64,000 nucleotides of DNA from Candidatus Acidiferrales bacterium (GTDB taxonomy: Bacteria > Patescibacteriota > Microgenomatia > Levybacterales > UBA12049). Shown here in pieces: positions 3,486 through 45,649 of the stretch (position 1 is its first letter; the number at the start of each line of letters is the position of its first letter). A program made the translations under genes and the position numbers. Where the stretch lies: assembly GCA_035533875.1 (NCBI GenBank), contig DATLSZ010000029.1:31636-95635 (forward strand), given 5' to 3'. Below the pieces are notes generated by a model that saw only the letters and a program-made list of their open reading frames with translations, was not told the DNA's origin and did not search any database.

Positions 3486-5921
3486 ATGAAAATTGATGGC
3501 GTAAGAGAAAAAGTATTTTTAGACAGATATGCACTCAAAGGTGCAGAAGGCGAGCTCTTGGAGAACACTCCGCAGGAGATGTGGCAGCGTGTCGCCAGTG
3601 GCATTGCCAAACAAGAGAAAAAAGTCAAACAAGCCAAGTGGGAAAAAGAATTCTACCGTGTCCTTGAAGACTTCAAATTTGTTCCTGGCGGACGTATCCT
3701 TTCCGGTGCCGGCACCGGCTATCAGGTGACATACTTTAATTGTTTTGTCATCCCAAATCCCAAAGATTCCCGGCATGGTATCCTTGAATCACTCGGGCAG
3801 CTGATCGAGATACAGTCTCGATCCGGCGGTGTGGGGTTGAACCTTTCATCCCTGCGACCTCGCGGAGCCCGGGTCAAGAAAGTTAACGGTACCTCATCAG
3901 GTCCGGTGAATTGGGCAACACTCTTCTCAGTCGCGACACATGATATCGTCCAGCAAGGTGGATCCAGACGCGGCGCGACGATGCTGATGCTGCATGATTG
4001 GCATCCTGATGTTGAGGAATTTATTACCGTCAAACAGGATCTGACCAAGATCAATGGTGCTAATTTATCGGTCTGTGTCTCAGATGGGTTCATGGAAGCG
4101 GTCAAAGCAGATAAAGATTGGGATTTGGTCTATCCTGAGCTGAGTGATCCGCATTATGATGCGGAGTGGGATGGCGATATCAACGAATGGAGAGAAAAAG
4201 GATACAAAATCAAAGTTTACAAAACAGTCAAAGCAAAAGACCTGTGGGAGCTCATCTGCACCGCTGCATGGCGCTCTGCCGAACCGGGTTTACACTTTTT
4301 GGAACGCAGCAACAAGAGAAGCAACACCTGGTATTTTGAGAAATTGCTTGCCACCAATCCATGCGGCGAGCAGCCGCTTGGCGGATGGGCTGTGTGTAAT
4401 TTGGGCGCGATGAATCTGGCTGCCTATGTCAAAGATGCGGACCTCAAGAATGACAAAGCAGGCTGGTTTGATTATGAGGCGTTCGGAAAAGATGTCCAAG
4501 TCGCGATGCGATTCCTGGATAACGTGATCGATGACACGTATTACTTCTTTAAAGAAAATGAGAAAGTTGCCAAAGATATCCGCCGGACAGGGCTGGGCAT
4601 CATGGGAATTGCCGATACCTTTATCCAGATGAAGATCCGATATGGATCGGAAGAGTCGGAGAAAGTATCCAAAAAGATTTTTAAAGCCCTCCGCGACAAT
4701 GCGTATATCGCGTCTTCCGATCTGGCAAAAGAAAAAGGTGCATTCCCGAAGTTCGATCGCGATAAATATCTGAAAGGCTATCATATCAAAGCCCTGCCGC
4801 CTGAAATCCGCAAGAAGATCGCTGATCAGGGGATCAGAAATGCTGTTCTTTTAACGATCGCGCCGACCGGTACCACCAGTCTTTTGGCAGGTGTTTCAAG
4901 TGGCGTTGAGCCGGTGTATGAATTTGAATATTCTCACAATGGGCGGCTTGGCAAACAAATGGTTTACCACGGTCTTTATGGTGAATGGAAAGAAGCACAT
5001 CCTGATGAAGAACGTCCCGATTACTTTGTCGGCGCCAATGATCTGACACCTGATGATCATGTAAAGATTCAGGCGATCGCGCAGGAATATATTGATTCCT
5101 CGATCTCAAAGACCGTCAATGCGCCCAACTCCCACACGGTTGAAGACGTCAAAAATCTCTATATGTCTGCATATGATAACGGACTCAAAGGGGTGACATA
5201 CTTCCGTGACGGATCACGGATGGGCGTACTGCAGCGTGAGGAAAAAAAGGAAGAGAAAGTGCAGGAACAAGTGCCTACCGTCATCGAAAAACCGGTTGTT
5301 CCGATAACACCTCGTATCGCACGTCCGATGGTACTTACCGGGGTGACCTACAAAGCAGAAAGTCCGACAGGAAAAGTGTATGTCACGATTAATAATGATG
5401 AAAAGGGTGATATGTTTGAGGTTTTTATCAATCATGGAAAGAGCGGATCTGATCTTATGGCACTTGCGGACGCGCTCGGCCGGATGGTTTCATTTGTCCT
5501 TCGAATCCACAGTCCGGTTCCTGCCCGGGAGCGGGTCCGCGAAATCGTGTCAGAACTCGCGGGTATCGGCGGCAGCCGCAGCAGCGGTTTTGGGGAGAAC
5601 AGAGTCCGGTCACTGCCTGATGCTATTTCAAAAGTCCTTGCCAGGCATTGCGAATTCCGCGTTAACGGTAAAGTCGAAGACAGCGTGCAATTTTTGCAGC
5701 GGATGAGCAACGGACATGGCAATAACCATGCACAGATCGCACAGTCAATTGAGGAGCCACATGAAGAGGTTGTCTCCAGCCAATTGGCACTGCCGCAAAC
5801 CGGTGTGCACAGCGGCGCCTCAACATCACTCTTTGATATCTGTCCTGAGTGTGGATCGGGGAGCTTTGCGTACGAAGAAGGCTGCAAAAAATGCTATGCA
5901 TGCGGATACTCTGAGTGTTAA
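3486..5921 (+). CDS. nrdJ: adenosylcobalamin-dependent ribonucleoside-triphosphate/diphosphate reductase (class II RNR) with C-terminal Zn-ribbon tail
   Basis: Class II RNR hallmarks are present: NCFVIP, the catalytic region NPCGEQPL, and a C-terminal CPECGSG...CKKCYACG. No intein is apparent. Confidence 0.9.
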   Translation: MKIDGVREKVFLDRYALKGAEGELLENTPQEMWQRVASGIAKQEKKVKQAKWEKEFYRVLEDFKFVPGGRILSGAGTGYQVTYFNCFVIPNPKDSRHGILESLGQLIEIQSRSGGVGLNLSSLRPRGARVKKVNGTSSGPVNWATLFSVATHDIVQQGGSRRGATMLMLHDWHPDVEEFITVKQDLTKINGANLSVCVSDGFMEAVKADKDWDLVYPELSDPHYDAEWDGDINEWREKGYKIKVYKTVKAKDLWELICTAAWRSAEPGLHFLERSNKRSNTWYFEKLLATNPCGEQPLGGWAVCNLGAMNLAAYVKDADLKNDKAGWFDYEAFGKDVQVAMRFLDNVIDDTYYFFKENEKVAKDIRRTGLGIMGIADTFIQMKIRYGSEESEKVSKKIFKALRDNAYIASSDLAKEKGAFPKFDRDKYLKGYHIKALPPEIRKKIADQGIRNAVLLTIAPTGTTSLLAGVSSGVEPVYEFEYSHNGRLGKQMVYHGLYGEWKEAHPDEERPDYFVGANDLTPDDHVKIQAIAQEYIDSSISKTVNAPNSHTVEDVKNLYMSAYDNGLKGVTYFRDGSRMGVLQREEKKEEKVQEQVPTVIEKPVVPITPRIARPMVLTGVTYKAESPTGKVYVTINNDEKGDMFEVFINHGKSGSDLMALADALGRMVSFVLRIHSPVPARERVREIVSELAGIGGSRSSGFGENRVRSLPDAISKVLARHCEFRVNGKVEDSVQFLQRMSNGHGNNHAQIAQSIEEPHEEVVSSQLALPQTGVHSGASTSLFDICPECGSGSFAYEEGCKKCYACGYSEC

Positions 5922-5924
5922 TTG

Positions 5925-5954
5925 AGCGTCTAGCTGCTAGCGTTTAGCGTCTAG
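5925..5954. repeat. third copy of the 30-nt AGCGTYTAG repeat array
   Basis: AGCGTCTAG-ctgct-AGCGTTTAGCGTCTAG, the same 9-mer/N5/16-mer architecture as the array at 2208-2238. Confidence 0.6.
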
Positions 5955-6105: not shown

Positions 6106-6654
6106 ATGCCGATTTATACAAGAACTGGAGACAAAGGAAAAACCTCGCTTTTTGACGGCACTCGCGTTCTGAAATCTCATAAGCGAGTTGAAACATATGG
6201 TACCATTGATGAGCTCAACAGTACCATTGGGGTTGCCGTTGCTGAGATTAAGGATTTAGGATTAAAGATTAAAGATTTGCCAGAAGAGTTAGAGAACATA
6301 CAGCATGATTTGTTCGCAATTGGTTCGGCACTGGCGATGCCGCATCCGATTCCTGTTGCAGGCCTGGAGAAGCGTGCGAAAGAGTTTGAAAAACTTATTG
6401 ATAGTCTCACGGGAGAAATGCCTGAATTAAAACAATTTATCCTCCCCGGCGGTGGAAAAGCAGGATCCCTTCTACATGTCTGCAGGACAATTACCCGCAG
6501 AGCCGAGAGGCAATTGGTTGCTCTTATTCAGAAAGAAGAAGTTGATGAGTCAATTGTTGTGTACCTTAATAGGCTATCGGATTTGTTCTTCACGATGGCG
6601 AGATATGTTAATCAAATTGAAAAGAGAAAAGAAATTATTTGGAAAAAGAAATAA
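6106..6654 (+). CDS. pduO: PduO-type ATP:cob(I)alamin adenosyltransferase
   Basis: The N-terminus MPIYTRTGDKGKTSLFDG is the signature of the PduO/MMAB family. Confidence 0.88.
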   Translation: MPIYTRTGDKGKTSLFDGTRVLKSHKRVETYGTIDELNSTIGVAVAEIKDLGLKIKDLPEELENIQHDLFAIGSALAMPHPIPVAGLEKRAKEFEKLIDSLTGEMPELKQFILPGGGKAGSLLHVCRTITRRAERQLVALIQKEEVDESIVVYLNRLSDLFFTMARYVNQIEKRKEIIWKKK

Positions 6655-6674
6655 GATTTAAGATTAATGATTGA

Positions 6675-6719
6675 AGATTAAAGAATATTCTTAAATCCTA
6701 AATCTTATATCTTTAATCT
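6675..6719 (+). other. hairpin after pduO (AGATTAAAG ... CTTTAATCT stem with inner palindrome AAGAATATTCTT)
   Basis: A 9-bp inverted repeat at 6675-6683 and 6711-6719. No clear T-run follows it, so it may be a terminator or a structural element. Confidence 0.35.
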
Positions 6720-10012: not shown

Positions 10013-12394
10013 ATGCAGTTACAATCAATAACATCACAAAATATAACAAGCGTTATTTTATCGGCATTTTTGATTCTCATAGGACTCGTTCTTTTGGCGG
10101 GGCTTTTGTGGGGGCTATTCTTCATTTTTGTTCTTTGGCTTCGCTACCGAAATCGTGAATCCGAATCGCTTAATTCTATTCTCTTGCAGGTAACCGTTCC
10201 AAAAGAAAATGAAATCAAAATCGATGCAGCCGAACAACTTTTTGCAAGTCTTTATGCGCTTTATGGAACGACAAGATTTGAATATTTCAGACATCAGCCG
10301 CACATTTCTTTTGAGATTGTCGGGTTGCCCGGAGACATACGATTTTACGTCAATGTCCCGGCAAAATACCGTGATTTTGTTGAAAAACAAATAAATGGTG
10401 CATATCCTGAAGCGGATATCCTGCCAGTAAATGATCCTGCCGCCAAGCAGCGTGATGGTACAGTGATCGGAACGGAATATAATATTTTTTCAGAGAATGG
10501 CAAAGTCGCCTTCATGTGGATGAATTTGAAAGGAGCAAATTATTTACCGATTAAAACATACAAAGATCTTCCTGTTGACCCGCTAGCACAAATTACTACT
10601 ATTTTGGGGAAGATGAGTGAAGGAGAGGGCGCTGCTATTCAGATACTTATCCAGCCCTCGGGTCCAGAATGGCAAAAAGTAGGTCGTGGGTATATCGGCA
10701 ATGTCAAAAAAAATGAATCAAATCCTGAGAAGGCAAGTTATAAAACCGATGCTAAGGAACTTGAAGCAGTTGAAAACAAACTCAGCAAGCCTGGATTTTA
10801 TACAACGATCAGGGTGGTCGTCTGCTCCAATACACAAGAACAGGCAAATGCACATCTTAATAACATCAGAGGAGCATTCAGTCAATTTAATTATGTAAAT
10901 TCCTTCAAAAAACGCTGGCAATTTTTCAGAGGCTTATTTATGACTGATTTCATTTATCGTTATTTCCCAATGTTCCGAGAGTCATCGGTATTAACTAGTG
11001 AAGAATTAGCTAGTATTTACCATTTTCCCAACAAAAGCATCGGCACACCAGGCATTCACTGGCTTTATTCTAAACGCTATGCTGCGCCATCCACTATTGC
11101 AACATCGGGATTATATCTGGGAAAAAGCACATTCAGAGGATCATCGCGTCCCATTTTTGTCGATCGTGAGGACAGGAGGCGGCATTTCTATATCATCGGA
11201 AAGACCGGTACCGGTAAAACTGAGTTTCTCAAGACGATGATCACACAGGATATTCTCAATGGTGAGGGCTGCGCTGTAATTGACCCGCATGGAGACTTGG
11301 TGGAAGACATTCTTAAGATTATTCCTCCAAAACGTGCTGAAGACGTCATTCTTTTTGATCCTTCAGATTATGATCGCCCGATGGGCTTTAATATGCTGGA
11401 AGCGGAGACTGAGCAGCAGAAGCATTTCGCCGTCAACTCTATCATAGGACTTATGTATAAGTTGTTTGATCCGAACAAAACCGGTATCGTTGGACCGCGG
11501 TTTGAGCATGCCGTCCGAAACGCTATGTTGACCGTCATGTATGAAAAGGGGAGTACCCTTATTGAGGTTATGCGTGTTCTGACTGATCCTACCTATGTAC
11601 AGGAAATGCTGCCGAAAGTTCAGGATCCGATTATTAGGAGATATTGGACGGATCAGATTGCGCAGACATCAGACTTTCATAAATCGGAAGTCTTGGATTA
11701 TATTACATCAAAATTTGGGCGGTTTGTTACGAACAAAATGATCCGTAATATCATCGGTCAGTCGGATAGTGCGTTTTCATTCCGCAAAGTCATGGATGAA
11801 CAAAAGATACTCCTTATCAATCTTTCCAAAGGAATCATCGGTGAAGAAAATTCCAACTTTTTGGGGCTTGTTCTTGTTCCGAAGATCTTGATTGCCGCTA
11901 TGTCACGGCAAGATATGCCAATGAGTGAAAGGAAAGATTTCTTCCTGTATGTCGACGAGTTCCAGAATTTTGCAACTCCTGATTTCGCGCAGATTCTTTC
12001 AGAGGCCCGAAAATACCGGCTTAACTTGATCGTTGCCAATCAGTTCATCGGTCAGATGGAAGAGGAGATCAAAAACGCTATCTTCGGTAACGTCGGTACC
12101 GTTGCCTCATTTCGTGTCGGTGTGACCGACGCAAGTTACCTGCAGCACGAGTTCCAACCAATATTCAGTGAACAGGATTTGATTAATGTTGATAAATTTA
12201 ACGCATATGTGCGGACCATTATCGGAGGAGAAACGGCAGAACCGTTCTCTCTTGACACAACCAAAGATCTCTCAAAAGAAAAATCGATGGAGAATCCGCG
12301 TGTTGCTCAGCTGGTGAAAGAATTATCGCGCTTGAAGTATGGGAAGACTGTGGCAACTGTCGAGGCTGAAATTGCTCAACGGTCACGACTTTAA
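10013..12394 (+). CDS. membrane-anchored FtsK/HerA/TraD-VirD4 superfamily P-loop ATPase (type IV secretion coupling-protein-like)
   Basis: Two N-terminal TM helices, Walker A GKTGTGKT near aa 395 and Walker B YVDEFQNF. The overall layout resembles TrwB/VirD4 with an extra roughly 300-aa N-terminal domain. Confidence 0.6.
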   Translation: MQLQSITSQNITSVILSAFLILIGLVLLAGLLWGLFFIFVLWLRYRNRESESLNSILLQVTVPKENEIKIDAAEQLFASLYALYGTTRFEYFRHQPHISFEIVGLPGDIRFYVNVPAKYRDFVEKQINGAYPEADILPVNDPAAKQRDGTVIGTEYNIFSENGKVAFMWMNLKGANYLPIKTYKDLPVDPLAQITTILGKMSEGEGAAIQILIQPSGPEWQKVGRGYIGNVKKNESNPEKASYKTDAKELEAVENKLSKPGFYTTIRVVVCSNTQEQANAHLNNIRGAFSQFNYVNSFKKRWQFFRGLFMTDFIYRYFPMFRESSVLTSEELASIYHFPNKSIGTPGIHWLYSKRYAAPSTIATSGLYLGKSTFRGSSRPIFVDREDRRRHFYIIGKTGTGKTEFLKTMITQDILNGEGCAVIDPHGDLVEDILKIIPPKRAEDVILFDPSDYDRPMGFNMLEAETEQQKHFAVNSIIGLMYKLFDPNKTGIVGPRFEHAVRNAMLTVMYEKGSTLIEVMRVLTDPTYVQEMLPKVQDPIIRRYWTDQIAQTSDFHKSEVLDYITSKFGRFVTNKMIRNIIGQSDSAFSFRKVMDEQKILLINLSKGIIGEENSNFLGLVLVPKILIAAMSRQDMPMSERKDFFLYVDEFQNFATPDFAQILSEARKYRLNLIVANQFIGQMEEEIKNAIFGNVGTVASFRVGVTDASYLQHEFQPIFSEQDLINVDKFNAYVRTIIGGETAEPFSLDTTKDLSKEKSMENPRVAQLVKELSRLKYGKTVATVEAEIAQRSRL

Positions 12395-23332: not shown

Positions 23333-24806
23333 ATCTCAAGAACCAAATAATAAATCACAAAAGTTTTTAGAAAAAATTATTGCGAAGAAAACTAAAGAGT
23401 TTGTTCGGACAACTCAGAAGACTCAGAAACCCAGCATGTCAGATTTTCAGATAGTCAGAATTTCAGATATTCCGAGTAATCAGAGTTTTCTGAAGATCTT
23501 TGATTTGGAAAACAAAAAGAAGATCGGGCTGATCGCCGAAGTGAAATTCGCGTCGCCGACGAATCCGCATCTTGGCTCTCCAGATGATTTATTACAACGA
23601 GTTGAACAATATGATCAAGCGGGTGCAGGTGCAATTTCTTTTATTACGGAAAAACATTATTTTAAAGGAGATACTCGTTTTATTCCGCAGATTAAAAAGG
23701 CGGTAGATCTACCAATTCTGCAGAAAGATTTTATCATCGATGAACAGCAGATTTATGAAGCAAAACAAATAGGGTCCGATGCGCTGCTTTTAATCGCGCG
23801 TCTCGTTGATAAAGAAACTCTTAAACAATTTGTCGATCTCTGTTTGGAATTGCATGTTGAGCCGGTGGTTGAAATTAATTCCGACGACGATTTGAAAAAA
23901 GCTGTTGCAACAAAGACAAATATTATCGCAGTTAATGCTCGGGACTTGGAAACATTTGAGATTGATGTAAAGAAAGCATGTCTTTTGATGAGAAAGATTC
24001 CGGACCGGTTTATTAAGCTTGGTTTCTCAGGCATTCAGTCTGTAAAAGAAGTTTTGCAATATAAAAATGCAGGAGCAAACGGGGTACTGGTAGGAACAAG
24101 TTTGATGCAGGCGAAAGATATTAAAATGTTTGTTAAGAGTTTGCAGGTTTTGCCAGAAGCTCCTTCCCGACGTACTCACCAAGACGGACAAGTACAAGTG
24201 AAAATTTGTGCGACAAGAAGTATTGAAGCGGCACAAATTGCAGTAGATAATGGTGCGGAATTTTTGGGATTGGTGTTCACACCACTGATTAAGACGCATA
24301 CTGTTGATCGGAAAGTAGCTGCGCAAATCGGAAAAGAAATGAAAGGGAAAATTCAGTTAGTCGGTGTATTTCAAAATATGCCGCTTGAAGAAGTCCAAGC
24401 GATAATAGCTGAATGTAATTTGGATTATGCGCAATTTCATGGAGATGAGACGCCGGAATATATTAATCAAATAAAGATAAAGATCATAAAAGCGTTCCGG
24501 TTCCCAGGTGTTGTTAATCTTAAGCAAGCAAGGAAGCAGATGAAACAGTATACTGTGGACTATTACTTAGTCGATCGTATTAAACAAAGTGAAGGGCCAA
24601 TACTTGATCTGAATATAGTCAGTATCCTTGCGAAAGAGTTTCCTTTAGTTTTCGCCGGTGGTTTGAACACCGAAAATGTAACTGATGTTATAAAAATAGT
24701 AAAACCAAAAATGGTCGATGTTGCATCTGGGGTGGAGACAAACGGACAGCAAGATATGAAAAAAATAAAACAGTTTATTAAAAATGCAAAAGGAGTAACT
24801 ATATGA
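23322..24806 (+). CDS. trpCF: bifunctional indole-3-glycerol-phosphate synthase / phosphoribosylanthranilate isomerase
   Basis: The N-terminal half has IGPS motifs (IAEVKFASP, SFITEKHYFKG). The C-terminal half has a PRAI motif (VKICATRS...). Confidence 0.85.
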   Translation: MKSKSQEPNNKSQKFLEKIIAKKTKEFVRTTQKTQKPSMSDFQIVRISDIPSNQSFLKIFDLENKKKIGLIAEVKFASPTNPHLGSPDDLLQRVEQYDQAGAGAISFITEKHYFKGDTRFIPQIKKAVDLPILQKDFIIDEQQIYEAKQIGSDALLLIARLVDKETLKQFVDLCLELHVEPVVEINSDDDLKKAVATKTNIIAVNARDLETFEIDVKKACLLMRKIPDRFIKLGFSGIQSVKEVLQYKNAGANGVLVGTSLMQAKDIKMFVKSLQVLPEAPSRRTHQDGQVQVKICATRSIEAAQIAVDNGAEFLGLVFTPLIKTHTVDRKVAAQIGKEMKGKIQLVGVFQNMPLEEVQAIIAECNLDYAQFHGDETPEYINQIKIKIIKAFRFPGVVNLKQARKQMKQYTVDYYLVDRIKQSEGPILDLNIVSILAKEFPLVFAGGLNTENVTDVIKIVKPKMVDVASGVETNGQQDMKKIKQFIKNAKGVTI

Positions 24807-26900: not shown

Positions 26901-27887
26901 ATGAAGCAAAAACGAGTATTATCAGGAATTAGAGCGACCGGGAGACTGCATCTCGGGAATTATTTGGGTGCGATAAAAGGGATGCTTGCATTGCAGAACG
27001 ATCCTGATTTTGAAACGCTCTATATGGTCGCTGACTTACATACGATTACAACGCCATATGCTGTTGAGGAGCTCAAAAAGAACAGACGAGAAGTAATTAT
27101 TGATTATCTTGCGGCAGGACTTGATCCGCAGAAGAGTATTCTTTTTCAGCAAGCTGCCAATCCGCATCATGCAGAGCTCGCATTTTATCTCTCAAGTGTT
27201 GTGACGATTGCCAAGATGCAGCATTTGCCGACCTTTAAAGATAAGGTCAAACAACATCCTCAGCATGCAACGATGGCACTTCTGAATTATCCGATTCTCA
27301 TGACAGCAGATATTCTTGCGTATAAAGCATCGGATGTCCCGGTCGGTATTGATCAGGAACCGCATCTGGAAGTCGCAAGAGAAATAGCACGACGGATGAA
27401 TCAGGATTACGGGACTGATTTTCCCGAACCAAAGAGTTTTAAATCGACAGGTGACTATGTGCCGTCTCTCACCGGAGAAGGGAAGATGAGCAAATCTGTC
27501 GAGGGAAGTTATGTTAATTTGGTTGATGATTTGGAGACGATTAAAGCAAAATTGGCAAAAGCACCGACTGACTCAGGTAAAGGTACGCTTACTGCTATGG
27601 TGGCAGGAGTTTCTTCGCTGCTTACGTTTGTGCAATTATTTGAAGGGAAAGAAAAAAGAAATGCTTATGAAGATGCATATCAAAAAGAGGGAATCCGGTA
27701 TGGAGATTTAAAGAACGAATTGGCAGAAGCAATATTTAAAGAATTACAGCCGATTCACGAGAAGAGAAAAGAACTTGAAGCGAATCCGAAAGAAGTTGAT
27801 CGGATTATAGAGGAGGGCAATGAAAAAGCACGTACAATTGCTGCAGAGACAGTAAATGAAGTTAGAGAAAAAATGGGGCTCTTGTAA
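26901..27887 (+). CDS. trpS: tryptophan--tRNA ligase
   Basis: A HIGH-class motif variant (TGRLHLGNY) and KMSKS; the length is typical of TrpRS. Confidence 0.9.
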   Translation: MKQKRVLSGIRATGRLHLGNYLGAIKGMLALQNDPDFETLYMVADLHTITTPYAVEELKKNRREVIIDYLAAGLDPQKSILFQQAANPHHAELAFYLSSVVTIAKMQHLPTFKDKVKQHPQHATMALLNYPILMTADILAYKASDVPVGIDQEPHLEVAREIARRMNQDYGTDFPEPKSFKSTGDYVPSLTGEGKMSKSVEGSYVNLVDDLETIKAKLAKAPTDSGKGTLTAMVAGVSSLLTFVQLFEGKEKRNAYEDAYQKEGIRYGDLKNELAEAIFKELQPIHEKRKELEANPKEVDRIIEEGNEKARTIAAETVNEVREKMGLL

Positions 27888-27926
27888 AAGTATCAAGAGT
27901 ATCAGGGGTATCAAAAGTATCAAGGG
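27887..27926. repeat. tandem 9-bp repeat (GTATCAAGA-like, about four units)
   Basis: AAGTATCAAGAGTATCAGGGGTATCAAAAGTATCAAGGG read directly, lying between convergent genes. Confidence 0.7.
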
Positions 27927-27952
27927 CTTACATTATTTTTAGAGAATAGAAT

Positions 27953-28723
27953 CTAGATTGTAATTTCTGCTGTTAATCCGAAATGATCGGAGAGATCTTC
28001 ATCAATTACTGCAAATTTTTTTACCTCCAAATCCTTACTGGTAAAGATATAATCGACTGCAAGCCCTTTGGGAAATAATTGTTTGGCTCGATGGTTTTTT
28101 GGATCCAAGGTATTTGTTATCTTATGTTCTGTAATAAGATTGCGGGTGAGTGTGTCGATTTTTTTGATAAGCGGCTGATCCGGGGTGATATTGAAATCAC
28201 CCGAAAGCACAAACGGTGGCGTCACCGTTTGCAAATAGTCAAAGAGCATTTCACCTTGTTTGGTCTGAAACGGTTTTTCAATATGATCTCCTCCCCAGGC
28301 AGCATGAGTATTGATGCATGAGATCTGTTTGTTCTCAATTTCAAAGGTAAGATGCAACACTGTCCGCCCAACATTCTCGTATGCTGTTGAATCTGAGGGA
28401 AACGGTGCAAATTTTGAAAGGATAAGTTCTTTTTTAGCTAGAAGTTTATAATGATTTTTATAAAATATTCCGTTGCCCATATATGCATCCGAGCTTGAGG
28501 TATAGCGCTGTGCGATTGAAAGTACGCCGTAATATTTGTCCTGCAGGATTTTTTGTAATTCTGCGAACGTGTTGCGACGTGAGTGGATATTTCCGACAAT
28601 TGTATCTTTTCCCGTTAATTCCTGCAGGTGTATGATGTCAAAATCATGAGAAGTTATATAATGAATTTGCTTGTCCCAATAGTTGTCTGCATTGATATTG
28701 AGCTGGAGCAGTTTTATTATCAT
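27953..28723 (-). CDS. endonuclease/exonuclease/phosphatase (EEP) family protein
   Basis: LQE...SGDFN...SDH motif distribution typical of the EEP fold. Confidence 0.7.
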   Translation of the reverse strand: MIIKLLQLNINADNYWDKQIHYITSHDFDIIHLQELTGKDTIVGNIHSRRNTFAELQKILQDKYYGVLSIAQRYTSSSDAYMGNGIFYKNHYKLLAKKELILSKFAPFPSDSTAYENVGRTVLHLTFEIENKQISCINTHAAWGGDHIEKPFQTKQGEMLFDYLQTVTPPFVLSGDFNITPDQPLIKKIDTLTRNLITEHKITNTLDPKNHRAKQLFPKGLAVDYIFTSKDLEVKKFAVIDEDLSDHFGLTAEITI

Positions 28724-40979: not shown

Positions 40980-41621
40980 ATGAAAGAAGAAATTTGTAAG
41001 AACTGCGGACACACATTGGAAAAACGAGCGACCAAACGCACTGTCGCACAGCTTCAAAAGCCTTATTATTATACGGCATATTACTATTGCCCCAGCTGCA
41101 GCAAACTCTATCATGATGAGAAGTTTAAGGTAGTAAATGAAGGAGTATCAAGAGTAGCAAAAGTATCAAGAGTATCAGAGGCTTTGCATATGTTTGATTC
41201 ACGTGAAGGTTCTTCTTATGATGCGGAAATCTGGACAGATGGAGCGTGTGTCTCTAACGGTACACCTCGTGCGAAAGCAGCTTGGGCGTTTGTTTCAGGG
41301 AAAACAGAACAGGCGGGCAGAGTTGAAGGCAAACAGACCAATAATGTTGCCGAAGGGTTGGCAATCTATCATGCTCTTTTGTGGGCTGCGGAAAAAGGAT
41401 ATAAAAAAATAGCATTGCATACCGATAGTCAGATCTCACTGCATAATCTAAATAAGCCTGCCAGTAAAGTGAAGGTGAACCGGGAGATTTTTGAAGATAT
41501 TGAAAAGATAATCGCGGCGAATCAATTGGAAGTTGATTATAAAAAAGTCCTCGGTCATTCAGGTGATCCAAACAATGAGCGGGCGGATGCGTTGGCAAAT
41601 AGGCTTGCTTCTACTGATTAA
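40980..41621 (+). CDS. rnhA: ribonuclease HI with N-terminal Zn-ribbon (CxxC...CxxC) and an in-frame 9-bp-repeat linker
   Basis: RNase H catalytic residues in IWTDGAC, the region NNVAEGLAIYHAL, and HSGDPNNERADALA. An N-terminal CKNCGH...CPSC is present. The start is taken at MKEEICK. Confidence 0.7.
   Translation: MKEEICKNCGHTLEKRATKRTVAQLQKPYYYTAYYYCPSCSKLYHDEKFKVVNEGVSRVAKVSRVSEALHMFDSREGSSYDAEIWTDGACVSNGTPRAKAAWAFVSGKTEQAGRVEGKQTNNVAEGLAIYHALLWAAEKGYKKIALHTDSQISLHNLNKPASKVKVNREIFEDIEKIIAANQLEVDYKKVLGHSGDPNNERADALANRLASTD
41142..41180. repeat. tandem 9-bp repeat (GTATCAAGA-like) inside the rnhA-fusion CDS, same family as 27887-27926
   Basis: GTATCAAGAGTAGCAAAAGTATCAAGAGTATCAGAGG, which encodes the linker VSRVAKVSRVSE. 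Confidence 0.65.
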
Positions 41622-43330: not shown

Positions 43331-44065
43331 TTATGAATGATTGTCTTCAAGGATTTTTTTTGCGGTTTTTTTCAGTGACTCCTCTGTTTCTTTTTGGTAC
43401 TCTTGATACAAATACCAGATGCAAAAGATAGTAATAAAAAGAAGTGTGTAGGAGAAAAGAAAAACAATTGTTGCTGACAAACTTTTGATAATCCCCTCCC
43501 CTGTCGTTGTCAGCGAATAGAGAAAAAATCCGATGAGCGCAAAGGGGAGTAAGAGCAGATATCCATGGACCCAATCATTCTTGCTGTGATGCCGATAACG
43601 TCTGGGGACGTGTCTGAAGATATGGGTAAATTCTTTGGGTACATAGAGTGTATAGATAATAAATCCGGTAAAGAAGATGAGACCAAGCAGGGTATTGATA
43701 ACTGCAGTAACTAATCCTTCGACAAAAAAACTCCAAAGGAAAATAAAACTCATCAGTATGGCACCGCTGGCCAGGATGATAGTCCGGAGTTCTTTTTTTG
43801 CCAATTTGCGTGTTTTGGGTACAAAGGATTTGTGCAGCCAATGCTTTGCTTCTTGTTCTTCCTGCATGTAGCGAACTGCGCGTTTGAGACTTTCGTCATT
43901 CTCTTTTTGTATCTCTTTATACAGGTACCAGCTGACAATGAGCATCAAAAGCAGCATGGGGAAGAGGAACACAAATGACGTGCTATTTTGCATTGTTAAC
44001 AGGAGAAGCGCAATGATGATAAAGGCGATTGCAGTGAGACGGGCTTTATGCAATTGATCCAGCAT
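43331..44065 (-). CDS. membrane protein with internal tandem duplication
   Basis: Two similar halves, each with a 2-TM hairpin followed by a LYKEIQKENDESLKR / LYQEYQKETEESLKK-type helix. Confidence 0.45.
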   Translation of the reverse strand: MLDQLHKARLTAIAFIIIALLLLTMQNSTSFVFLFPMLLLMLIVSWYLYKEIQKENDESLKRAVRYMQEEQEAKHWLHKSFVPKTRKLAKKELRTIILASGAILMSFIFLWSFFVEGLVTAVINTLLGLIFFTGFIIYTLYVPKEFTHIFRHVPRRYRHHSKNDWVHGYLLLLPFALIGFFLYSLTTTGEGIIKSLSATIVFLFSYTLLFITIFCIWYLYQEYQKETEESLKKTAKKILEDNHS

Positions 44066-44767: not shown

Positions 44768-45103
44768 ATGACGAATGTTATACAAAAGAAAATTTTAAAA
44801 GTACTACTTTATTTCTCTCCTCTTTATAAATATAAAATTTCCGGTGACAGTATGTCTCCTACCCTTCATAATGGACAAATTGTTTTGGTTAACAGGTTCA
44901 TCTATCTGTTTGCAGCTCCAAAAAAAAATGACATTATTGCAGTTCGGGATCCTCGAGATGGCAAAGTCTTGATCAAGCGGATTAAAAAGATTGAAGACAA
45001 GCGATATTTTGTGTTGGGAGATAACAAAAAAGCCAGTACGGACAGCAGAGTTTTTGGTATGATAGAAAGACAAGATATTGTGGGAAAAGTATGGTTGTCT
45101 TAA
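44768..45103 (+). CDS. sodX: S26 signal-peptidase-like NiSOD maturation protease
   Basis: Catalytic Ser motif GDSMSPTL and a lysine region. It is short (111 aa) and lies immediately downstream of sodN. Confidence 0.65.
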   Translation: MTNVIQKKILKVLLYFSPLYKYKISGDSMSPTLHNGQIVLVNRFIYLFAAPKKNDIIAVRDPRDGKVLIKRIKKIEDKRYFVLGDNKKASTDSRVFGMIERQDIVGKVWLS

Positions 45104-45630
45104 TTCTCTGTTTGCTTGTTATTGTTATTCTACTGTTTCTTCTTTCCATGCTCTGGCCGCCGGATAGTCCGTGGTCGCCTTGGTGGCGGACTACGCCAAA
45201 GCTCGCACGGGTTGAATGTGATCTTGCCAAAGTAAAGAAAGGAGATGTCATTTATGATCTCGGGTCGGGTGAAGGAATTGCGCTTATTACCGCAGCAAAG
45301 GAATACGGAGCGCGGGGAGTAGGGATTGAGATTGACCCGCTCAGAGTGTTTATTGCAAAAATCAGGATTAAACTTGCGGGAGTTGCGGACAAAATTGAAA
45401 TCAGACGGGATAATTTTTGGAATCAGGATATTTCGGAGGCGACTGTTATTTTTATGTATCTAATCCCCAGAACGCTAATCAAGCTTCGTCCAAAGTTTCT
45501 TAAGGAATTAAAACCAGGTACCCGAGTCGTGACCTTTGTCTACAAGATGGATCTGCCCATGATCGCAAAGGATGATGCAGCAGAGCTGTATGTGTACGAA
45601 ATACCGAAGAAGAATAAGATTGGAGATTAA
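45091..45630 (+). CDS. membrane-anchored class I SAM-dependent methyltransferase
   Basis: N-terminal TM helix followed by the SAM-binding motif VIYDLGSGEG. Confidence 0.55.
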   Translation: MVVLILCLLVIVILLFLLSMLWPPDSPWSPWWRTTPKLARVECDLAKVKKGDVIYDLGSGEGIALITAAKEYGARGVGIEIDPLRVFIAKIRIKLAGVADKIEIRRDNFWNQDISEATVIFMYLIPRTLIKLRPKFLKELKPGTRVVTFVYKMDLPMIAKDDAAELYVYEIPKKNKIGD

Positions 45631-45649
45631 GGATTTAAGATTAAAGAGG

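Follow-up and report, generated by a model that had tools for sequence, protein, structure and literature searches.

Rickettsia palindromic elements (RPEs) are described in PMC10969869 as small repeats that lie in frame in unrelated housekeeping genes of a reduced genome. Here we analyzed a 64,000-nt stretch of contig DATLSZ010000029.1 (hereafter the window; GC content about 41%), whose best protein matches came from bins of Patescibacteria, the Candidate Phyla Radiation (CPR), assigned, where named, to Roizman-, Levyi-, Curtiss- or Gottesmanbacteria. The window carries two short arrays of a 9-nt unit, one directly behind trpS and one in frame in the gene of a Zn-ribbon–RNase HI protein (rnhA). 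Comparison with counterparts in other genomes makes it probable, with appreciable room for doubt, that both are solo arms belonging to a family of small, non-coding repeats that is dispersed in Microgenomates-type CPR bacteria, that is, DNA tolerated in the manner of RPEs. By behavior, RPEs would be the closest analogue; membership by sequence is not claimed.

The present element and the RPEs are both small, non-coding, dispersed multi-copy families of reduced genomes, with a capacity for hairpins that is seen here in the paired forms, and both add a peptide segment in frame without destroying the host protein, with about half of the copies being intragenic. They differ in their hosts (CPR bacteria here, Alphaproteobacteria there), in size (an arm of ~42 nt and a pair of ~75-125 nt compared with ~100-150 bp for an RPE) as well as in the four phased 9-nt units with a hexamer core, the copy number resembling a variable number of tandem repeats (VNTR) and the many single arms. 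Phylum and length being different, no sequence relationship is claimed. The primary description of RPEs is reportedly that of Ogata et al. (2000, Science 290:347). [quoted passage not shown] Unlike for these elements, neither a target-site duplication nor a cognate transposase or REP-associated tyrosine transposase (RAYT) was established here, no systematic search for such enzymes having been made. Unlike REP/BIME sequences, which are extragenic 20-40-nt imperfect palindromes with a GTAG/CGTC tag, the unit is not palindromic, has no GC-rich REP stem and no consistent tag of this kind, and half of the copies are intragenic. The arms are also internally tandem-repetitive, which distinguishes them from both groups.

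Cyanobacterial short tandemly repeated repetitive (STRR) arrays consist of near-identical heptamer units, are scattered mostly between genes and have no known function. Compared with the STRRs as generally known, the present arrays are similarly short, lineage-typical and located at many sites, and the window also holds heptamer arrays; the period of 9 rather than 7, the conserved core with a variable spacer, the four units, the in-frame genic copies and the phylum are different. Borg tandem repeats and the amino acid tandem repeats (aaTRs) they encode consist of perfect copies, generated locally and for each site independently (PMC9879509). They, too, occur between genes and in open reading frames (ORFs), where unit lengths are multiples of three and segments disordered, and some start at gene ends, whereas here the same imperfect unit recurs across sites and genomes as in a dispersed family. 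In palindromic amphipathic repeat coding elements (PARCELs), entire surface proteins are composed of coding repeats of 25 residues (75 nt) each (PMC2996958). Translated repeat DNA with dyad symmetry, variable number and spread within and between genomes is common to both, while the 3-codon unit in this study lies in unrelated conserved enzymes and in intergenic DNA. What would be new, judged by these analogies, is the occurrence in CPR bacteria of an RPE- or MITE-like repeat that lies in frame and is built from phased hexamers; a limited search of the full-text literature returned no description of this repeat family in CPR bacteria, which leaves its absence unproven.

The preliminary description of the window had reported one 9-bp repeat both between genes and in frame in the RNase H gene, and both arrays were located where it had placed them, with four phased GTA(T/G)CA-NNN units at 27890-27925 and four more at 41145-41180 (Tandem Repeats Finder, TRF, with a period of 9 for both: 4.0 copies at 27889-27924 and 3.9 copies at 41143-41177). 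The motif GTATCARRR was found 16 times in the window compared to 4.2 +/- 2.2 times in shuffled sequences, and seven of these 16 occurrences belong to the two arrays. Matches of the three-unit phased pattern GTANCANNNGTANCANNNGTANCA were confined to the two arrays and absent from 100 shuffles. The trpS and rnhA arrays have an identical stretch of 20 nt in common. A two-unit remnant on the opposite strand, absent from the preliminary description, has one mismatch to the two-unit pattern and is translated in frame as ..YQEYQK.. (Table 1). A profile hidden Markov model (HMM) built exclusively from arms of other genomes recovered the trpS arm over model positions 2-43 of 43 (E=3.3e-12), the rnhA arm over positions 3-42 (E=3.3e-10) and the remnant at E=0.011. 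No family of Rfam 15 matched anywhere in the window at the gathering threshold.

Table 1. Arms, remnants and host genes in the window (window coordinates).
Feature	Coordinates	Strand	Description
Solo arm, intergenic	27887..27928	+	A-rich lead, GTATCAAGA GTATCAGGG GTATCAAAA GTATCAAGG, then GCT; first base is the last base of the trpS stop
Solo arm in rnhA linker, in frame	41143..41182	+	GTATCAAGA GTAGCAAAA GTATCAAGA GTATCAGAG, then GC; codes V56-E67 (VSRVAKVSRVSE)
Two-unit remnant	43394..43409	-	GTATCAAGAGTACCAA = GTATCAAGA GTACCAA; near 3' end of membrane-protein ORF 43331-44065 (-)
Linker remainder	41183..41228	+	..TTTGCATATG TTTGATTCA CGTGAAGGT TCT..
rnhA host gene	40980..41621	+	CxxC...CxxC Zn ribbon, disordered linker, RNase HI domain
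trpS	26901..27887	+	Pfam tRNA-synt_1b 3e-59; stop TAA 27885-27887 adjoins intergenic arm
Endonuclease/exonuclease/phosphatase (EEP)-family gene	27953..28723	-	Pfam Exo_endo_phos 9.6e-11; convergent with trpS, bounds insertion
trpS-EEP spacer, 65 nt	27888..27952	.	Arm plus GCTTACATTATTTTTAGAGAATAGAAT; lineage-specific insertion

Thirty arms could be aligned without gaps and gave the consensus AAAA-(GTAYCA-M-R-R)x4-GCT. Each unit combines a conserved 6-nt core, GTAYCA (GTAG being a minority variant), with a variable 3-nt spacer, and nearly every aligned arm has exactly four units. Several features that these arms have in common lie outside the search pattern, namely the purine at the second spacer position in all 120 units of the 30 arms, the base after the array, which is G in 29 of 30 arms and is followed by C in 22 and then T in 19 of the 30, the four units per arm, and a 5' flank rich in A, in which TAA or TTAA is frequent. 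The arms form a single family and do not resemble each other by chance. At eight loci two arms face each other across a loop of 2-53 nt, all convergent with their GC ends pointing inward, the single arm measuring ~42 nt and the paired element ~75-125 nt. The paired forms fold as hairpins (locus L002 z=-5.7 and -5.3, L001 z=-5.9), and the eight convergent pairs behave as long inverted repeats. Solo arms are frequent, both window copies included, and direct as well as inverted arm arrangements were found. The earlier label of a microsatellite holds insofar as the copy number varies, but does not fit non-identical units with a fixed 6-nt core, a variable spacer, a usual number of four units and a fixed GC(T) end. 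The 9-mer amounts to three codons and leaves five of six frames stop-free, with the GTAGCA variant introducing TAG in one forward frame; the open frames were discounted as evidence of design, since five of six is nothing unusual when a 9-mer has this GC content.

A genome-wide search for tandem arrays had been proposed in the preliminary description, and a scan of species-representative genomes with the loose four-unit pattern GTANCANNN x4, for which at least 120 matches were listed, uncovered a dispersed family in Microgenomates-type genomes. The matches listed fell into two classes: perfect 9-mers of coding type from unrelated taxa, which made up most of them, and arrays with core and variable spacer from Patescibacteria bins, including Curtiss-, Levyi- and Gottesmanbacteria, SMAG_U6018 and other Microgenomates-type bins. 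Among the matches listed, the repeat family is thus shown to be restricted to Microgenomates-type CPR genomes. In total, at least ~35 arms in ~22 loci of several Microgenomates lineages belong to it, and three copies are found in the window. A tighter pattern applied to viral contigs yielded 11 loci, essentially all of them perfect 9-mers and several from giant-virus bins, and there is no evidence in these contigs for a viral vehicle of the repeat. The sole viral match with a partial inverted arm (L216 7127-7200, IMG/VR contig 3300002220_005645, GC 0.49) reads TTGATACCCTTGATAT-AGCT-(GTATCAAGA)x5-GTATCAAAA; its layout of reverse arm, AGCT center and perfect forward array is the opposite of that of the CPR pairs, and its source may be either a CPR phage or a misclassified contig. 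Loci L009, L040, L060 and L074 as well as P0001/P0123 have clear CPR gene content together with the CPR repeat and carry source labels at odds with this (Acidoferrales, Saccharimonadales, Sulfotelmatobacter, Lysobacterales, Gammaproteobacteria), probably as mis-binned or mislabelled contigs of metagenome-assembled genomes.

Among the ~39 arms surveyed, about half were located 2-26 nt from the 3' end of a gene or in short intergenic gaps, some arms lay just upstream of the next start codon, and the remaining half was positioned in frame within long ORFs. That the repeat sits in reading frames without breaking them, as stated earlier for the window, extends to ORFs identified by Pfam as encoding ArgRS, GMP synthase (GuaA), an RluA-type pseudouridine synthase, TsaD (in two genomes), ribosomal protein L1 and a GT1 glycosyltransferase. 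In these in-frame hosts, including rnhA, Pfam domains flank or surround each insert. One arm pair is carried by a 1336-aa ORF (L044) that resembles a family-2 glycosyltransferase by eye, without a Pfam scan. The two TsaD arms (L074 4629-4661 and L091 2244-2276) occupy the same loop before ..IDAI..GPG in opposite orientation (SIKGIKSTRGTKS vs FDTSDTFDTFAT), and this surface loop is a second recurrent hot spot beside the rnhA linker. Forward arms are translated in all three frames (VS[KR], IK[GS], YQ/YH). For reverse arms, the translation was [RLF][DG]T in each of the seven host proteins that were examined. Of the two reverse frames that are open, this one is the more hydrophilic, a bias that fits a selective filter for tolerable peptides. 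A second copy at L003 spans the stop of a signal-peptidase gene, the forward arm encoding IKG IKS IKA IKS and the inverted arm following past the stop.

The same compatibility with coding sequence is seen in rnhA, where the array was correctly described as the linker between the N-terminal Zn ribbon and the RNase HI domain. In the AlphaFold model (mean 89.7) both domains exceed a predicted local distance difference test (pLDDT) score of 90, while residues 60-67, 69-71 and 73-76 fall below 50. The array-encoded residues V56-E67 (VSR VAK VSR VSE) overlap this low-scoring stretch of 60-76 and are predicted to be disordered, so that for this one protein the model places the array in a permissive site. 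The segment between FKVxN and YDxEIWTDG is hypervariable among the 42 aligned homologs both in sequence and in length, which ranges from about 18 to 55 residues. A comparison of rnhA orthologs had been suggested along with the preliminary description, and the tripeptide linkers turned out to share a nucleotide unit and not to be encoded by unrelated sequences: in L001-L004, whose proteins are 57-77% identical, the (V-S/P/A-x)n linker is always coded GTA-(T/C/G)CA-NNN. As read from these codons, the repeat is conserved as DNA rather than as protein. In the L002 linker, a forward and a reverse arm enclose a loop (hairpin z=-5.7), and the linkers of L133 and L137 contain the reverse arm only, translated as RDT RDT RAT RDT. 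The linker remainder downstream of the window array may represent what is left of the loop and reverse arm of a formerly complete hairpin element: in the linkers of L001 and L002 the forward arm still pairs with this segment (z=-5.9 and -5.3), compared with z=0.1 for the window linker.

Among ~36 further orthologs, short linkers of 57-60 nt (~19 aa) were free of repeats and structure, and long linkers of 90-165 nt contained hairpin-forming inserts of unrelated kinds with z down to -5.3. The L130 linker insert (10157-10321) recurs elsewhere on its own contig (1167-1221) with 98% identity over 55 nt, and the palindrome of the L147 linker (5373-5480) recurs at two other loci (L130 15936-15962, L139 797-824). 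L149 1023-1130 is identical to L152 210-353 and L156 10154-10297 except for a 36-nt (12-codon) in-frame insert, a GC-rich hairpin of a different repeat family and a clean insertion/deletion polymorphism. These comparisons show the linker as a landing pad for repeats generally, that is, for this element as well as for unrelated palindromic repeats. The GC-rich palindromic linker repeats are translated as ..DSRLRGND.., ..SEAKNL.. and ..PLLxGEG.. and are also present elsewhere, on the same contig or on different CPR contigs; where CPR proteins contain peptides of this kind, these probably stem from the translation of repeat DNA.

The trpS copy, for which the reported position behind trpS and between convergent genes (trpS +, EEP gene -) was confirmed, begins with its array 2 nt past the stop codon. 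The gene order trpB-trpA-trpS, convergent EEP gene and HhH-GPD is kept in four relatives (L205-L208; TrpS 82-86% identical), and both C-termini, of TrpS and of the EEP protein, align codon for codon between these and the window. The distance from stop to stop is 65 nt in the window, while the relatives have either an overlap or 8 nt, with overlapping convergent stops (TTAA or CTAA) at L205 4005-4008, L206 3757-3760 and L208 1255-1258. Insertion of the repeat has broken this extreme compaction in the window. L209, the flanks of which are 100% identical to the window, has two units instead of four and lacks exactly 18 nt (27890-27907), a whole-unit difference between close strains as expected of a VNTR. 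Since this contig was assembled at k=127, which exceeds the array length, collapse of the repeat is unlikely. The copy is accordingly a recent and unstable insertion, and the earlier suggestion that the repeat may be mobile gains from its absence in four syntenic relatives and from the unit number differing between strains: the family is apparently mobile. Read-through of TrpS into the array was not seen, all listed homologs ending in ..KMGLx (window ..KMGLL*) and differing in length at the N-terminus. A scan for terminator and promoter consensus sequences around trpS revealed nothing terminator-like at 27888-27952, where the fold is weak (z=-2.0).

The intergenic trpS copy behaves as a VNTR and the rnhA copy is stable. 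Strain variation of rnhA was absent from L210 and L222, one of which stems from the same sample, and the apparent variant P0121 is an alternative gene call. P0121 (143 aa, starting at M71 after the array; window 41190-41621) is called by some pipelines on identical DNA (L222), leaving the Zn ribbon unannotated; this internal-start call may not be caused by the array.

Taken as a dispersed repeat, the complete element would consist of two facing arms across a loop of 2-53 nt that are capable of forming a hairpin, with solo arms representing half or decayed elements. Copies would enter new sites by a trans-acting or recombinational route, and slippage or unequal exchange would subsequently add or remove whole units, a unit change having been seen at trpS. 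With a three-codon unit and five stop-free frames, coding insertions would not truncate the protein, and the copies that pass selection would be those at the 3' ends of genes or, within conserved proteins, those at surface loops and disordered linkers. One such permissive site would be the rnhA linker between the two domains, colonized in different genomes by this element and by unrelated palindromes, and the window copy would now code 12 residues of flexible linker. The trpS copy would represent a recent insertion that separated two convergent genes with formerly overlapping stops. By analogy to RPEs, the element would have no host function and be selfish or neutral DNA tolerated in genes. 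Genomes of CPR bacteria are small and streamlined, and repeats and mobile DNA are generally regarded as scarce in them. The present family resides inside essential genes (tRNA synthetase, TsaD, GMP synthase, L1, RNase H) and at gene ends, and the parallel to RPEs in another reduced-genome lineage suggests that in-frame selfish DNA recurs in reduced genomes. The arrays yield hypervariable linkers and low-complexity peptides that are open to misreading as lineage-specific domains, and they could be used as strain-typing markers.

Several observations weigh against a tolerated dispersed repeat. The window copies have no significant fold (trpS z=-2.0, rnhA z=0.1), and the spacers of paired arms match at chance level only (45 of 96 compared to 45.9 under the null) without covariation, which is evidence against selection for a perfect stem. 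Protein identity between the genomes is only 57-77%, and yet the hexamer core does not vary among them, while uniform decay would be expected of neutral selfish DNA. The core may thus be under selection as a binding site that a transposase or a host factor recognizes, or else gene conversion and unit turnover may maintain its uniformity. At 249 kb of rnhA-ortholog loci, arrays of at least three units were present only in linkers and absent from 350 kb of controls and from shuffles, which could mean a specific tie to rnhA. However, none of the arrays from the pattern-only genome scan was in rnhA among the matches listed, and this association is therefore read as tolerance rather than as a specific functional tie. 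In the one filled/empty comparison, that at trpS, the insert has TTGTAA on either side, but this direct repeat overlaps with conserved codons of the EEP gene, and no target-site duplication was established. No transposase, RAYT or other mobilizing gene turned up, although no systematic search for transposases or RAYTs was made. Furthermore, the copy counts from the genome scan are lower bounds.

The misfit of the invariant core with a purely neutral element leaves substantial weight to a different explanation, which we regard as unlikely overall yet as the strongest of the rivals. The arrays might be functional cis-elements, phased multi-site arrays for a sequence-specific DNA- or RNA-binding protein, with gene-end copies kept for termination, 3'-end stability or nucleoid organization and genic copies tolerated as by-products. 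A conserved hexamer core with a variable, non-covarying spacer is the signature of motif recognition rather than of a selected stem, and the four sites fixed per arm, the occurrence of both direct and inverted arrangements, and the many copies 2-26 nt from stop codons or just before the next start point in the same direction, as do the many ~4-copy heptamer arrays at gene ends of the same genomes, some of which are common to several genomes. Ribbon-helix-helix proteins bind tandem 7-8-bp repeats, as the omega repressor (heptads WATCACW) and MetJ do, and TATCAC in the repeat unit presumably resembles the omega heptad; the reader of the arrays might also be an oligomer that binds RNA. On the other hand, about half of the copies are located deep inside housekeeping ORFs, and the trpS copy is absent in close relatives and reduced to two units in an otherwise unchanged strain, rendering it dispensable there. 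Moreover, the 9-bp spacing is off the helical repeat, no candidate binding protein was identified, and the scans above revealed neither an Rfam family nor a terminator-like signature. In a wider and slightly less likely version, the nonamer and the ~4-copy heptamer arrays together would form a CPR-wide phased recognition system, read by a dedicated oligomeric binding protein or recombinase. If this were true, the four-site arm would be a functional module with the hexamer held by selection and a 3-codon period that permits action inside essential genes, and the arrays would constitute a novel class of cis-elements, spread over the whole genomes of ultra-small bacteria. The conserved hexamer with its free spacer does hint at a recognizing protein, and the importance of the repeat family would rise if the hexamer array proved to be a recognition module.

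It is improbable that the rnhA repeat represents an old, vertically inherited and flexible (V-S/P/A-x)n linker, maintained by protein-level selection, from which the trpS copy was secondarily derived by ectopic gene conversion or duplication. Such an origin would account for tripeptide repeats at the same linker position in orthologs with 57-77% identity, for a reverse arm in the same place relative to YD.EIWTDG in L002, L133 and L137, and for the 20-nt stretch that the window arrays share. Yet Val is always encoded by GTA and Ser/Pro/Ala always by xCA, a codon fixity that selection at the protein level would not yield, and other proteins read the same DNA in other frames and orientations (IKG/IKS, YQE/YHE, RDT/LDT). 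In addition, most orthologs are without an array, those with one are scattered on the tree, and arrays are present at many loci unrelated to rnhA.

Still more improbable are ordinary local microsatellites, in which independent slippage from local seeds would have created the arrays and the shared unit would be coincidental or compositional. Whole-unit copy change between strains and the richness of these genomes in short tandem arrays are in line with slippage, but the near-identical units expected from a local seed were not found: the spacer differs in almost every unit and the core is fixed, which is the opposite of what slippage produces, perfect 9-mers being typical of other taxa. Core, spacer rule, number of units and GC(T) end are alike at about 20 loci in many genomes, and shuffles contain no such arrays; together with the recovery of the window copies by the profile, this effectively refutes such an origin.

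The protein encoded by rnhA matches Pfam RNase_H (PF00075) at residues 82-209 (1.4e-18). Of 4274 database matches to it, the best ~120 all cover at least 86% of the query, and the Zn-ligand cysteines C6, C9, C37 and C40 as well as the catalytic DEDD residues D87, E125, D149 and D203 are invariant in the 42 aligned homologs. In a neighbor-joining tree of the conserved domains, which is a rough one, array-bearing genes are scattered among those with other linker types, favoring recurrent gain and loss. A fusion of a Zn-ribbon gene with an RNase H gene through insertion of the repeat, which the preliminary description had suggested and for which the position of the repeat exactly at the domain junction speaks, is the least credible of the alternatives and is refuted by an architecture that is conserved in the best ~120 of 4274 matches and kept with or without the repeat, most orthologs having repeat-free linkers of ~19 aa and the array-bearing genes appearing scattered and derived on the domain tree. 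The fusion therefore predates the repeat and is independent of it.

Tandem arrays of other kinds are abundant in these genomes. In 493 kb of Microgenomates-type loci (the window, L001-L004, a subset of L009-L091, L125-L160 and L205-L208), TRF reported 153 arrays with a period of 6-12 and at least 2.8 copies, which amounts to about one array in 3.2 kb. The set is dominated by arrays with a period of 7 and ~4.3-4.6 copies, many in inverted pairs, a general property of these genomes that is reminiscent of the STRRs. In the window, AAGATTA-type heptamer arrays of about 4.5 copies are located at 6653-6684/6689-6719, 45616-45647 and 6245-6277, and units of this type were found three times in L158, which belongs to another genome. 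The array at 6653-6684 starts on the TAA that ends ORF 6106-6654, an inverted TCTTAAA array coming directly after it (weak hairpin, z=-1.9), the one at 45616-45647 spans the stop of ORF 45091-45630 between convergent genes, and the one at 6245-6277 within ORF 6106-6654 encodes ..EIKDLGLKIKDL... Imperfect inverted arrays of (AGCGTCT)x4 and (CTAAACG)x4, ~45 nt apart at 2209-2238 and 2284-2314, lie just upstream of an ORF that is NrdR-like by eye (ATG at 2320) and could, from this arrangement, be operator-like sites. AGCGTCT recurs at window positions 5925-5954 and in a Levyibacteriota contig (L091 2041-2071). A further array, of TCAGATAT type with a period of 8/16/24 and about 5.6 copies according to TRF, occupies positions 23423-23484 of the window.

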